A program made the translations under genes and the position numbers. From NCBI GenBank assembly GCA_021161825.1, contig JAGGZW010000130.1, positions 1,503 to 65,502 on the forward strand: DNA of 64,000 nt. Direction: 5' to 3'. Numbering within the stretch: position 1 is the first letter of the stretch; every line of letters starts with the position of its first letter. Below are positions 8,317 to 64,000 of this stretch, one piece after another. The stretch is from Thermoproteales archaeon. Lineage in GTDB: Archaea; Thermoproteota; Thermoprotei; Thermofilales; B69-G16. The notes under the pieces were generated by a model. It worked only from the letters and a program-made list of their open reading frames with translations. It did not search any database and was not told the DNA's origin.

Positions 8317-8425
<109 letters not shown>

Positions 8426-24599: not shown

Positions 24600-24715
24600 G
24601 CGGGGGTGCCCGAGCTAGGTCAAAGGGGGCGGACTTAAGATCTCGAGCAAATAGGGCCGAGAAATAGGAAATCCGTTGGGGAAGCCCTGCCCGGGTTCGA
24701 ATCCCGGCCCCCGCA
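24600..24715 (+). tRNA. tRNA-Leu(UAA) with ~31-nt canonical intron
   Basis: Same body as the other Leu genes. Anticodon arm is GCGGA-CTTAAG[ATCTCGAGCAAATAGGGCCGAGAAATAGGAA]A-TCCGT. Confidence 0.9.
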
Positions 24716-44818: not shown

Positions 44819-44913
44819 GGGCCCGTAGCTTAGTAAGGTAGAGCACCCGGCTCTTAATTTAGACACCCAAAGGAGAGACCGGGGGGTCGCGGGTTCAAAT
44901 CCCGCCGGGCCCG
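44819..44913 (+). tRNA. tRNA-Lys(CUU) with ~21-nt canonical intron
   Basis: GGGCCCG-TA-GCTT..GAGC-A-CCCGG-CTCTTA[ATTTAGACACCCAAAGGAGAG]A-CCGGG-GGGTC-GCGGG-TTCAAAT-CCCGC-CGGGCCC-G. Confidence 0.9.
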
Positions 44914-45336: not shown

Positions 45337-45433
45337 GCCGGGGTAGCTCAGCTCGGTAGAGCATCCGGCTGTTAAAAGTATACATTGCTTTACAGAGACC
45401 GGATGGTCGCGGGTTCAAGTCCCGCCCCCGGCG
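45337..45433 (+). tRNA. tRNA-Asn(GUU) with ~23-nt intron
   Basis: GCCGGGG-TA-GCTC..GAGC-A-TCCGG-CTGTTAA[AAGTATACATTGCTTTACAGAGA]CCGGA-TGGTC-GCGGG-TTCAAGT-CCCGC-CCCCGGC-G. Confidence 0.9.
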
Positions 45434-51375: not shown

Positions 51376-51473
51376 GCCCCGGTAGCTCAGGTGGTGGAGC
51401 ACCGCCTTGGTAAGGCGGGGGAACAGCTGCTAGCAGCTGTCTCGAAACGCGGGTTCAAGTCCCGCCCGGGGCT
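51376..51473 (+). tRNA. tRNA-Thr(GGU) with a 25-nt non-canonical intron in the variable loop
   Basis: GCCCCGG-TA-GCTC..GAGC-A-CCGCC-TTGGTAA-GGCGG-GGG[AACAGCTGCTAGCAGCTGTCTCGAA]AC-GCGGG-TTCAAGT-CCCGC-CCGGGGC-T. Removing 51422-51446 leaves a 5-nt variable loop. Confidence 0.85.
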
Positions 51474-58671: not shown

Positions 58672-59021
58672 GGGGTTAGCCGATCGTAACCCACCTTCTG
58701 TTTTAGCGGAATCTGTCTAAGAGCCTACCCGAGCCTTCCCACGGACCTCATCGGCTCTGTTTGGCTCTGAACCCGCGGGGCGGCCGTTTCATCCTTTCCT
58801 ACATTCTCGTCGACGGGTTATCTCCGTCCTGTTGCCAGGACGGTTCTCGGCTTAACGCCTCGGCCGTCTCATTCTCATGGAATGTAGGAGGTCTCGTTTC
58901 TGTGCCGTTGCCTAGGGTTTCCCCCAGCGCCTCGCAGCGCCACGGGTCCGTGGACGTGGTGGAGTTTCCTCAGGTTGCCCGTCGCCGTGGCAACCCGAGA
59001 TCCGCCCGTCGGCTAACCCCC
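58672..59021 (-). ncRNA. rnpB: RNase P RNA (archaeal type A-like)
   Basis: 350-nt GC-rich island. P1 is GGGGTTAGCCGA/TCGGCTAACCCC, and P3 is the hairpin GGTTGCC..GGCAACC. CR-I is TGAGGAAACTCCACC. CR-IV/V is AAAACAGAAGGTGGGTTAC, whose GGTGG pairs with the CR-I CCACC (P4). Confidence 0.85.
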
Positions 59022-61513: not shown

Positions 61514-61605
61514 CGCCCCGGCCGGGATTTGAACCCGGGTTCTGGCGGGATCTGCGCTTAAAGCTTGACAGCCGCCCATACTCGACCTGGCTATACGACC
61601 GGGGC
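61514..61605 (-). tRNA. tRNA-Asp(GUC) with ~16-nt intron
   Basis: GCCCCGG-TC-GTAT..GTAT-G-GGCGG-CTGTCA[AGCTTTAAGCGCAGAT]C-CCGCC-AGAAC-CCGGG-TTCAAAT-CCCGG-CCGGGGC-G. Lies ~90 nt downstream of the 23S 3' region on the same strand. Confidence 0.85.
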
Positions 61606-62058
61606 GTAGAGTAGGTTAAAGAACCTACAAAAAACACAAAGTCCACAAATTTAAGTTTTTCTGCCAAAATTAGCGTTAATTAAATAGAGAAGCCGTATAC
61701 AGCCCATGCACGCATACGCCCAAGTCCACACCCAGCAAACACAACACCTCGGGCTATTGGGAGTGGCCAGCTCACGCCTCGGCCGAAGCCTCGGCGCTTA
61801 CACCGCCACCCCATCAACCCTGTCTTCTACAGGTGCCCTCGTCCCGGTCCCGGAGAGTCGTCGCCGACCCCCAACGGACCGGGAATGGCCGCCTCGTCTC
61901 GGGGAGGGCTTCGGGCTTAGATGCCTTCAGCCCTTATCCCTTACGGCGTGGCTGCCCGGCGCTGCCCTGCCGGACAACCGGTAGACTAGAGGCCGCGGCC
62001 CGCCGTTCCTCTCGTACTGAGCGGACCTTCCCCTCAGGCGGCCAACACCCCCGACAGG

Positions 62059-62093
<35 letters not shown>

Positions 62094-62127
62094 TCTCACG
62101 TTCCCCTTTAATGGGCGGGCAGCCCCA

Positions 62128-62816
62128 TTCAAGGGGGAGAGCCGTGGCCGGATAAGTGTTTAACCAGGCTTACATCGTAATTTAAGGAAATTATATTTTT
62201 CAACAATCTTGGGGTGAATGGGGTTGAATATCTGAATGAATTTTTCGATGTTTTCCCATCCTCTTATCCTTACCTTATATATTGTTTTTCTATTCCCTTT
62301 TCCTAGATGTTTTGTTACTGTAACGTTTACTCCTTTTCTCTTGATGTATTCCGCAATGCTGTAAATGAGTTCTTTGTTTGTGTTCGCTACTTCCAAGACT
62401 ATTCTGCATTTTTTATCTATATATACCGTTCCTTCAGCATCTGTCAGTCCTGTTACAAAGCTTTTAACTGGTTTTCTTTGTCTAATCTTTATTCTTTTCT
62501 GAATTTCCTCGTATAGGGATTTAGATGTTACTTGTAATCGGTAATAGTTCTTCTTTTTACGATAGATATGAGCATTTATCTTGAATATCTTTTGTATTAT
62601 TGTTTTCAGTTCTTTAAGGTATTCATAGCTATTGTCGTATATGTAGATGTAGTGAGTGTTTCCTTGTCTATAGAGTGTTCCATCCCCTATTATTACTCCT
62701 GCTAAGTAGTTGTAGGTTGTTCTTATCCTACACATATTCACCCCTATTAGAGTAAGCAAACGTATTTAATGCAGTTCATATGTGATCGTGATAACTTTCG
62801 GCCACGGCTCTCCCCA
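62128..62816 (-). mobile_element. archaeal (BHB-spliced) rRNA intron, 689 nt, encoding a LAGLIDADG endonuclease
   Basis: Outer helix GCAGCCCC/GGGGCTGC, central 4-bp helix CAAG/CTTG, and 3-nt bulges GGT and AAT. A 17-bp inner helix is GGGGAGAGCCGTGGCCG/CGGCCACGGCTCTCCCC. The joined exons read CAAGGG|TGGGGCTGCCCGCCCATTAAAGG, colinear with bacterial CAAGGGTATGGCTGTTCGCCATTTAAAG. Boundaries +/- 2 nt. Confidence 0.85.
62160..62759 (-). CDS. double-motif LAGLIDADG homing endonuclease (I-DmoI-like architecture)
   Basis: Two dodecapeptide motifs, YLAGVIIGDGTLY and FVTGLTDAEGTVY, about 95 aa apart. TTG at 62759 or ATG at 62735. Entirely inside the intron. Confidence 0.85.
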   Translation of the reverse strand: MLTLIGVNMCRIRTTYNYLAGVIIGDGTLYRQGNTHYIYIYDNSYEYLKELKTIIQKIFKINAHIYRKKKNYYRLQVTSKSLYEEIQKRIKIRQRKPVKSFVTGLTDAEGTVYIDKKCRIVLEVANTNKELIYSIAEYIKRKGVNVTVTKHLGKGNRKTIYKVRIRGWENIEKFIQIFNPIHPKIVEKYNFLKLRCKPG

Positions 62817-62865
62817 CCCTTGGGGGCTGCTGCACCCCCAGGATGGGAAGAGCCGACATCGATGT

Positions 62866-62906
<41 letters not shown>

Positions 62907-63428
62907 TCTGTTATCCCCGGGGTAACTTTTCTGTCATGCCCGGCCCCCACCGGAGGGGGCACGAGCGTTCGCTAGGCCGCGGTTTCCCGGCCGGACCCGT
63001 TATGTTCCGGGGTCCGGTCAAGCCGGCTTTTGCCCTTGCACTCTACGGCGGAGCTCTGACCCGCCTGAGCCGACCTTTGGGCGCCCGTGTTACCTTTTCG
63101 CGGGCGTGCCGCCCCAGCCAAACCGCCCACCTGACGCTGTCCCCCCGGGTTCTCCCCGGGGGTAAGGCCTCCGGGCTGCGGTGAGTGGTGTTTCATTGGC
63201 GCCTCCCCCACCCCCGGAGGGGTGGGTTCACTGGCTCCCACCTACGCTACGCACCGCAGCCCGGAGGCCAACGCCAGGCTGCGGTAAAGCTCCACGGGGT
63301 CTTATCGCCCTGCGGGGGGTTGCCGGCCTGTGCACCGGCTCCGTGTATTCACGGGGCCCCGGGCCAGGACAGTGGGGACCTCGTTGATCCATTCATGCGC
63401 GCCGGAACTCACCCGGCAAGGCATTTGG

Positions 63429-63938
63429 CTACCTTTCTCCCGGGAGGTCCCGCCGCCTGGCGATATGTGAATTAATAATTGTGATTATTTCTTCAAGACT
63501 CCTTTTTCTACGAGCTTTTGAGCTGAGGCTTGATAATTCATATGCTTTAGAAACCAGTTCTTTGAGTTTAATATGGTTTTTATGTAGCCCTTTACTGAGT
63601 GAAAGAACTATTTCTCTGAACATTAGGTATTGTTCTTTCTTTATACTTAGCAGCTCTATATAATTATCAAGGAACGGAATTAATTTCTCGGTGAGTTCAG
63701 CCATATTATCTATTATGAGTAAGTATAGGTGTTTTTGTCCAGACTTCCTGATTATTCTTCCTGCATTGATTATTTTGCTTATTAGTTCTAATGGTTCCTT
63801 TTTTGCTTGTGTAATGCTGAATACTGGGTCTAGCCTTACTCCGTATGCTAGGTCTTTTTGAATTTTTATACTTACTGAGAAACTGGCTTCTGCATCTATG
63901 AATCCCAACACATAACCAATTATTAGGTCTTTGTTCAT
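63429..63938 (-). CDS. single-motif LAGLIDADG homing endonuclease (homodimer type)
   Basis: N-terminal IIGYVLGFIDAEASFSV is the only dodecapeptide motif. 169 aa. The last sense codon and the TAG stop use the downstream exon bases GGTAG. Confidence 0.8.
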   Translation of the reverse strand: MNKDLIIGYVLGFIDAEASFSVSIKIQKDLAYGVRLDPVFSITQAKKEPLELISKIINAGRIIRKSGQKHLYLLIIDNMAELTEKLIPFLDNYIELLSIKKEQYLMFREIVLSLSKGLHKNHIKLKELVSKAYELSSLSSKARRKRSLEEIITIINSHIARRRDLPGER

Positions 63939-64000
63939 TTCCTAACCCCTGGCTACCAATTTACAGCCAGGAGCTAATAAGCTTTACTTTTAGCCAGGCG
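63434..64000 (-). mobile_element. second archaeal rRNA intron (5' boundary beyond the window end)
   Basis: AT-rich ORF-bearing insert ending ...CCCGGGAGAAA immediately before the exon GGTAGCCAAATGCC. The universally conserved upstream exon block (..ACTCTCTTAA) is absent from the window, so the 5' junction lies past 64000. Confidence 0.7.

Follow-up and report, generated by a model that had tools for sequence, protein, structure and literature searches.

A probably mobile intron at site L1927 of a Thermoproteales 23S rRNA gene, with an endonuclease reading frame that ends on a stop codon of the rRNA exon

Among the closest described relatives of the element reported here is intron Vdi141.L1927 of Vulcanisaeta distributa, whose endonuclease I-Vdi141I has the target CCTGACTCTC^TTAA^GGTAGCCAAA in the 23S ribosomal RNA (rRNA) gene (Nomura et al. 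2008, PMC2602781). The same work states that this site is near-identical to that of I-PpoI and mentions an analogous A. pernix intron with its enzyme, I-ApeKII (PMC2602781). Intron PpLSU3 of Physarum polycephalum, the home of I-PpoI, has essentially the same conserved target, CTCTCTTAA^GGTAGC (PMC2602781), but it is a self-splicing group I intron and its enzyme is a His-Cys box protein of unrelated fold; the likeness reflects convergence on a single target instead of common descent. We analysed a stretch of 64,000 nucleotides (nt) from a Thermoproteales archaeon (contig JAGGZW010000130.1, positions 1,503 to 65,502; hereafter the window), in whose 23S gene we found an insert with an open reading frame (ORF) for a LAGLIDADG-type enzyme. 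This insert is very probably a mobile archaeal bulge-helix-bulge (BHB) intron of the same lineage as Vdi141.L1927 and the A. pernix intron.

Rfam places the archaeal large-subunit (LSU, 23S) rRNA on the minus strand at 61737-64000, truncated at its 5' end by the window edge. Confident alignment restarts at GGUAGCCAAAUGCC / GGUAGCCAAAUGCCUUGCCGG, from window position 63433 downward, facing 'uUAAgGUAGC' of the Rfam model. From 63433 up to 64000 the sequence is AT-rich (GC 0.37), non-rRNA and aligned to the LSU model nominally only, and the CTCTCTTAA block is absent within the window. A preliminary description of this DNA had proposed, from the letters alone, that the conserved block is replaced by an AT-rich insert, and these observations bear it out.

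The identical ORF was retrieved by exact-sequence look-up from two metagenome contigs, L001 (1509 bp) and L002 (802 bp); they agree with the window at 100% over 1189 and 646 shared nt, respectively. On both contigs exon 1 (...CTGACTCTCTTAA, ending ...GGAGTAACTCTGACTCTCTTAA) abuts the insert, which opens CGGGAGAATCTCGCCGCCTGGC; the last 8 bases of this string are the first 8 of the window minus strand. The conserved upstream block is thus directly adjacent to the insert, as expected from the preliminary description. The two junctions read ...GACTCTCTTAA|CGGGAG...GGGAGAAA|GGTAGCC, the 5' one lying ~15 nt outside the window at window-equivalent 64014/64015, and the insert between TTAA and GGTAGC measures 581 nt. 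Four separate contigs show the intron together with both exon junctions. In the window, its 3' 566 nt occupy 63435..64000 of the minus strand, as placed by the Rfam exon restart together with L001 and L002; the initial 15 nt, ACGGGAGAAUCUCGC, fall outside the window, at window-equivalent 64015-64001 (minus strand, read from L001 and L002). The downstream 23S exon (62812..63434, minus strand), which separates this intron from another one treated below, opens with the homing-site 3' half GGTAGCCAAA.

Compared with the published I-Vdi141I target, the rejoined exons, TCTGACTCTCTTAAGGTAGCCAAA, agree in 23 of 24 positions. The sole mismatch concerns an outermost position, numbered +/-12 in PMC2602781, for which minimal specificity was reported (PMC2602781). 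The insert interrupts the 23S gene exactly at L1927, the I-Vdi141I/I-PpoI site, and the site type named in the preliminary description is hereby confirmed.

A BHB motif is defined by a 4-bp central helix with a 3-nt bulge on each strand (PMC10485636). The whole intron with its flanks was folded without constraints, using coordinates of L001. In the minimum free energy (MFE) structure, UCUCU of exon 1 (275-279) pairs with GGAGA (857-861), UAA (280-282) is left as a 3-nt bulge, CGGGAG (283-288) pairs with CUCCCG (851-856), and UCUCGCCGCCUGGC pairs with GCCAGGCGGCGGGA. In a second fold the centroid agrees, and stability is above that of shuffled sequence (z=-4.5). The canonical register comprises a 4-bp central helix CUCU/GGAG between 3-nt bulges UAA and AAA, exactly as the definition has it. 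On the minus strand of the window, the 3' side of this structure consists of bulge AAA, which holds the 3' splice site (63434..63436; AAA, AUA, GAA or AGA in homologs), GGAG of the central helix (63437..63440), CUCCCG of the intron-intron helix (63441..63446) and GCCAGGCGGCGGGA of the closing stem (63448..63461), the last overlapping the ORF codons for ..ARRRD... The partners of the two helices, exon-1 CUCU at 64021-64018 and CGGGAG at 64014-64009, are outside the window. The 5' strand of the closing stem is inside it for the part CGCCUGGC (63993..64000, minus strand), the full UCUCGCCGCCUGGC running from window-equivalent 64006.

Sixteen distinct junction variants were compared. In the canonical register 98.1% of cells are paired, versus 35-61% in slid registers. 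Three of the six pairs of the inner helix display compensatory changes (CGGGAG/CUCCCG, CGGGGG/CCCCCG, CGGAGC/GCUCCG), the central helix is 100% paired and invariant in 16/16 variants, and the outer helix ACU/GGU shows a U-to-C change on one side, with pairing retained, and no double change. Of the two flanking helices of an hBHBh' form, the inner one is strong, with 6 bp plus a 14-bp stem, and the outer one has 3 bp. Folding and covariation therefore indicate that the intron ends form a canonical BHB motif; pairing of the intron 3' end with CTCTC of the upstream exon as a BHB central helix, anticipated in the preliminary description, is recovered by the MFE fold as CUCU/GGAG.

Due to A-runs at both junctions, three symmetric cut positions yield the same product and the boundary is ambiguous by 1-2 nt. 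A cut after the first of the bulge bases is incompatible with relatives whose bulge is AUA. With a cut after the second nucleotide, the intron probably corresponds to L001 282-862, that is window 64015-63435, and exon 2 starts with A63434. Symmetric bulge cuts made in silico join ...CUCUCUUA and AGGUAGCC into conserved CUCUCUUAAGGUAGCC, which is the published intron-less I-Vdi141I target. In-silico splicing restores CUCUUAAGGUAGCC in every homolog, i.e. in all 50 related inserts described below.

Since this and neighbouring rDNA sites harbour group I introns in eukaryotes, organelles and DPANN archaea, the insert might be one of these. Group I introns are indeed the home of I-PpoI (site 1925) and I-CeuI (site 1923), in archaea LSU/1923 and LSU/1931 carry group I introns with LAGLIDADG genes (PMC6125680), and distant homologs of our ORF are located in inserts 4 nt upstream that have no BHB ends. 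We nevertheless consider a group I origin of the L1927 insert extremely improbable. No Intron_gpI match is found in the window at Rfam gathering threshold, the part of the intron outside the ORF amounts to a 5' leader of ~76 nt with no 3' untranslated sequence, which is too little for a ribozyme core (P3-P9), and the ends form a canonical BHB with covariation.

The distant homologs just mentioned (29-46% identity) come from Woesearchaeota, Aenigmatarchaeota, Micrarchaeota and Heimdallarchaeota, and their inserts (L010 2784-3506; L011-L023, L025, L027, L029-L031) are arranged as ...AACTCTC|...|TTAAGGTAGCG. Unlike the L1927 intron, these DPANN/Asgard inserts lack BHB ends, their stop is placed 40-60 nt before the exon, and a long conserved RNA tail, GGATCCTCAGAGACC(A/G)TACGCC, follows the ORF. 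Archaeal group I introns have been described at LSU/1923 (Nawrocki et al. 2018, PMC6125680), and from this likeness to the literature the inserts are suspected to be group I introns; Rfam returned no group I model in the L010 insert at either gathering or permissive thresholds.

The ORF of the L1927 intron (63429..63938, minus strand) codes for 169 aa plus stop and contains a single LAGLIDADG motif, GYVLGFIDAEAS. Pfam detects one LAGLIDADG_1 stretch (residues 11-111, E=2.5e-15); with hits accepted up to E 1, LAGLIDADG_1 is the only family reported and no His-Cys box motif appears. The best solved relative is I-Vdi141I (PDB 3e54, E=3.8e-41, query residues 3-157 versus chain residues 5-158), which likewise has 169 aa, a single LAGLIDADG motif and a homodimer-type fold, and is 49-51% identical. 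An AlphaFold (AF2) model built on 22 homologs displays an alpha-beta-beta-alpha-beta-beta-alpha core of I-CreI type, with a mean predicted local distance difference test value (pLDDT) of 92.3. Its top Foldseek match is I-Vdi141I complexed with DNA (template modelling scores, TM, 0.91/0.97; root-mean-square deviation 0.9 A; 49% identity). The next matches are I-CeuI, a protein of related fold (TM 0.80) whose insertion point is 4 nt away, and I-CreI; all fold matches are LAGLIDADG enzymes. The acid at the motif end, a residue that in these enzymes binds the catalytic metal, is E17 (..FIDAEAS..); it as well as Q44 and K100, are invariant in the 22 homologs; we take these residues to be equivalent to D20, Q47 and K98 of I-CreI. 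Sequence and model together identify the predicted product as a LAGLIDADG enzyme of the I-Vdi141I lineage and of the single-motif, homodimer type to which the 169-aa ORF had already been assigned in the preliminary description.

Upstream of the ORF, the fold contains a 14-bp leader hairpin (63942..63977, minus strand) that stops 3 nt short of the ATG. The purine-rich GGGGUUAGG falls in its 3' strand, and the hairpin might gate translation initiation.

The 3' end of the ORF reads ...CGG GAC CTC CCG GGA GAA AGG TAG, and this TAG is that of exon GGTAGC. The exon-encoded end spans 63429..63434 on the minus strand (AGG 63434-63432, TAG 63431-63429), at the start of exon 2, (A)GGTAGCC. If the cut falls after the second bulge nucleotide, both AGG and TAG are wholly exonic; with the boundary drawn as TTAA|GGTAGC, the exon contributes two bases of AGG plus the stop. 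The stop is borrowed from the exon under either boundary convention, the ORF taking up the entire intron loop without a stop of its own. The preliminary description, which let the exon complete AGG and provide the stop, is therefore right as to the stop, while the exact 3' boundary probably lies one base upstream of where it was drawn and AGG probably belongs to the exon as a whole.

Relatives were gathered from 29 genome loci and 80 metagenome loci, which gave 50 distinct inserts of this type at L1927. In 28 of the 50 the ORF is intact and ends on the exon TAG (tails ...PGER, ...PGDR, ...PGGR), in 14 it is intact and stops elsewhere, and in the remaining 8 it is degenerate owing to frameshifts or premature stops. 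ORFs stopping elsewhere are mostly Caldivirga-like and have their stop 30-65 nt before the exon. Introns with exon stop are 559-585 nt long, most of those with internal stop 594-617 nt. A neighbour-joining tree was constructed from residues 1-157 only, the tail being left out. The exon-stop state occupies several deep branches of this tree, internal stops being confined to one nested clade and isolated cases. I-Vdi141I, whose ORF differs from ours in ending inside the intron (...GRNVSTSL, as read from the protein) and in lacking the PGER tail, branches basal to the clade that holds the window enzyme. In one relative, L005, a single nonsense codon is situated 19 nt upstream and the old frame beyond it still reads ALPGER.

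One Caldivirga-like variant among these 14 (L078, also L079) has an ORF that runs 22 nt into exon 2 in another frame (...KVAKCLAG) and stops at TAA. This ending is probably a second way to borrow an exon stop, after a frameshift.

The A. pernix 23S intron at site 1927 has the same BHB ends, and its insert measures 575 nt by our count. Its ORF ends ...CCC CCG GGA GAA AGG TAG on the exon TAG, as in the window. The differences are 49% protein identity, an annotated ORF of 158 aa and inner helix CGGGGG/CCCCCG. This intron is said to be the 575-nt 'I-gamma' of Nomura et al. 1998. The preliminary description noted the borrowed stop for the window gene, and it has to be added as a correction that the stop is on the exon in 28 of 50 distinct introns, A. 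pernix included. Judging from the sequences compared, the exon-supplied stop is a common trait of the lineage and not peculiar to this gene. A full-text search, outside of which the 1998 A. pernix report lies, retrieved no earlier account of archaeal rRNA introns whose ORF takes its stop from the exon. That such a stop, along with an RNA-dictated PGER tail, is general in the L1927 lineage is a mildly new point.

Homing endonuclease genes decay after fixation. The gene in the window might be at this stage, its reading into the exon being an accident after loss of its own stop, and the 8 degenerate ORFs among 50 related introns point in this direction. We regard decay as very unlikely all the same. 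The window ORF is of full length, and its dN/dS (ratio of nonsynonymous to synonymous divergence) is 0.07-0.16 over residues 1-158 against relatives near synonymous saturation (proportion of synonymous differences, pS, 0.62-0.82), which shows the ORF to be under purifying selection and no relic. Moreover, the acid of the catalytic motif is invariant, as are other core residues, the confident model superposes on I-Vdi141I at 0.9 A, and 28 distinct sequences continue into the exon in this frame.

The C-terminal IARRRDLPGER, 11 codons long, is encoded by the 3' side of the splice structure, namely closing stem, inner helix, central helix and 3' bulge. Over codons 159-169 synonymous divergence amounts to 0-0.23, versus 0.62-0.82 in the body of the gene, a signature of constraint at nucleotide level. 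In the protein model, pLDDT is below 50 for residues 167-169 and 58 on average for residues 161-169, so the tail is predicted to be disordered; in the I-Vdi141I crystal chain, 159 of 169 residues are ordered. We conclude that the ...PGER tail is a by-product of the splice motif and the invariant target, not a functional peptide. We also judge that the intron has probably been compacted until the ORF filled its whole loop, which would be tolerated because the exon UAG can never mutate.

A mobile intron of this kind would act as follows. In the pre-rRNA, CUCU of exon 1 is predicted to pair with GGAG of the intron, with UAA and AAA as bulges and with the inner helix and closing stem on the intron side. 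Cuts by the tRNA-splicing endonuclease of the host in the two bulges would be followed by joining of ...CUCUCUUA and AGGUAGCC by a ligase, which would re-establish the universal rRNA sequence. By homology, the homodimeric 169-aa enzyme should cut intron-less alleles at CTCTC^TTAA^GGTAGCC, and repair of the cut allele would copy the intron in. Cleavage by a homodimer that leaves 4-nt 3' overhangs is known for I-Vdi141I only (PMC2602781).

The position of the stop would also set apart the possible messengers. Unspliced pre-rRNA alone would carry the 169-codon ORF together with a stop, and a ribosome finishing this ORF would have to open the closing stem and the splice motif. The excised linear intron would have no in-frame stop and be a non-stop message. 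The circular intron would encode 168 + 13 aa (...PGE-TGESRRLAKSKAY), ending at a UAG of the leader. Three candidate messengers hence predict differing C-termini, namely ...DLPGER of a 169-aa product for the precursor, a non-stop product for the linear intron and a longer protein (...DLPGETGESRRLAKSKAY) for the circle. This sharpens an old unsettled question, which RNA serves as messenger for archaeal intron-encoded endonucleases.

The exon stop could itself be selected, as it would tie enzyme synthesis to the unspliced precursor and make translation and splicing mutually exclusive; production of the enzyme would then be limited to the short time until excision, or would take the form of a distinct, longer isoform from the circle. 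Such selection would agree with an old and persistent state (28 of 50 introns, in clades down to ~48% protein identity), with the physical overlap of the last 11 codons with stem and BHB, and with the fact that read-through of the circle in relatives always meets a stop within 8-27 codons. We find it rather unlikely. Length and sequence of the read-through tails differ between relatives, which leaves no specific isoform conserved, and RNA pairing alone explains the suppressed synonymous change in the tail. Relatives with an internal stop are intact too, I-Vdi141I is biochemically active, and L005 has come to an internal stop by one point mutation, being otherwise unchanged; given these three facts the exon stop is dispensable. 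To its working as a switch, with the circle giving an isoform extended by 13 aa or no released product, we likewise assign only a small chance. If it did, dosage of the homing enzyme would be coupled to rRNA transcription and to splicing kinetics.

Several points weigh against the interpretation as a mobile BHB intron with a compacted ORF. The 5' junction was read on other contigs, which are identical over the overlap, and not in the window itself. The central helix never varies, and covariation gives it no support. The outer exon-exon helix (ACU/GGU) has just 3 bp, which makes the motif less symmetric than a textbook BHB, and the fold of a mini-construct favoured UCUU/GAGA, one position out of register and with a bulge of 2 nt. 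The exact cut in the bulges is presumed to be the standard one of the splicing endonuclease, after the second bulge nucleotide. Splicing, circle formation, the C-terminus of the protein and cleavage are all predictions made in silico, and sequence alone cannot separate compaction from selected coupling.

With respect to annotation, the intron splits the 23S gene and hides a real protein gene whose stop is located in an rRNA exon; neither gene callers nor rRNA finders will treat such introns correctly. Across most of the L1927 lineage surveyed, the final 11 endonuclease codons are splice motif in protein form, a clean case from nature in which RNA folding and an unchanging target site determine a conserved C-terminal peptide, ...PGER. 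The enzyme adds a further natural variant to a family used as scaffold for engineered meganucleases.

The 23S gene of the window contains another intron of 689 nt (62123..62811, minus strand), sized from the empty site of L001 and ambiguous within a 5-nt TGGGG repeat. Its ORF (62759..62160, minus strand; 199 aa) has two LAGLIDADG_3 stretches and a stop inside the intron. Two different LAGLIDADG architectures in one rRNA gene, as noted in the preliminary description, are thus verified (LAGLIDADG_1 once, LAGLIDADG_3 twice). The nearest solved relative of the 199-aa ORF is I-DmoI from the Desulfurococcus mobilis 23S intron, with two LAGLIDADG domains per chain; the match is distant (E=7e-7 in a PDB search) and the similarity weak (E ~1e-6). 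The I-DmoI target, which we take to lie just downstream of L1927, is uninterrupted here, and the other intron is ~620 nt further on. A BHB drawn by hand for this intron was rejected, since it failed to reproduce the empty-site sequence of L001. At 1470-1509, L001 carries an allele free of this intron, ...CCCAAGGGTGGGGCTGCCC..., though identical to the window over 1189 nt. The intron looks like a presence/absence polymorphism among near-identical strains.

Parts of the 23S gene have different closest relatives. The segment 64000-62812 is 99% identical to contig L032 and 100% to L001, whereas the exon 3' of the other intron (62120-61749) is 81% identical to L032 4809-5216 and has its best match (90%) in L084. 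Such a mosaic could be an assembly chimera, either of the window or of L032, or real recombination at an intron hot spot. If the window were the chimera, the L1927 intron might originate from another rRNA gene or genome than the rest of the stretch. The drop in identity to L032 occurs at the insertion site of the other intron, L084 is itself distant for the middle exon, and BLAST of the genes flanking the 23S gene in L032 gave no match in the window. We hold a chimeric window for improbable, though conceivable, as L034, an independent contig, has the L1927 intron (98% ORF identity) followed by the middle exon and by a homolog of the other intron, arranged as in the window. The chimera could also be L032, and for the L1927 intron four separate contigs confirm both junctions regardless. 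Among the loci, the named genome nearest in the middle exon is Candidatus Calypsonella navitae (Acidilobaceae, Thermoproteota), at 92.8%.

Short ORF-less inserts are found few to ~20 nt from the site of the other intron, at ~4810-4855 of L032 (~43 nt) and at ~2195-2230 of L034 (~33 nt). They are G+C-rich at their ends and hairpin-like, and L034 holds both the mini-insert and the large intron. They have the look of mini-introns gathered at a single hot spot. L032, the 98%-identical relative, further contains a LAGLIDADG_3 ORF of 229 aa (2077-2766) in the 5' half of its 23S gene, which implies that the gene of the window may hold a third intron upstream of base 64000.

Elsewhere in the window, Rfam detects 9 tRNAs. 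Six of the matches are 92-116 nt long (8318-8425, 24600-24715, 44819-44913, 45337-45433, 51376-51473 and 61514-61605). ARAGORN run without intron handling reported 4 genes versus the 9 Rfam matches, three of them clean and one given as 'tRNA-???'; five of the long matches were omitted and the sixth (44819-44913) is the one left unresolved. The long matches are probably intron-containing tRNA genes, typical of Thermoproteota, and would fit an active BHB splicing system in the host. A scan of the region for sigma-70 promoters and terminators gave counts at chance level, the sigma-70 model being uninformative for an archaeon. An archaeal RNase P RNA (58675-59017, minus strand, 171 bits) is encoded ~2.7 kb downstream of the 23S 3' end.

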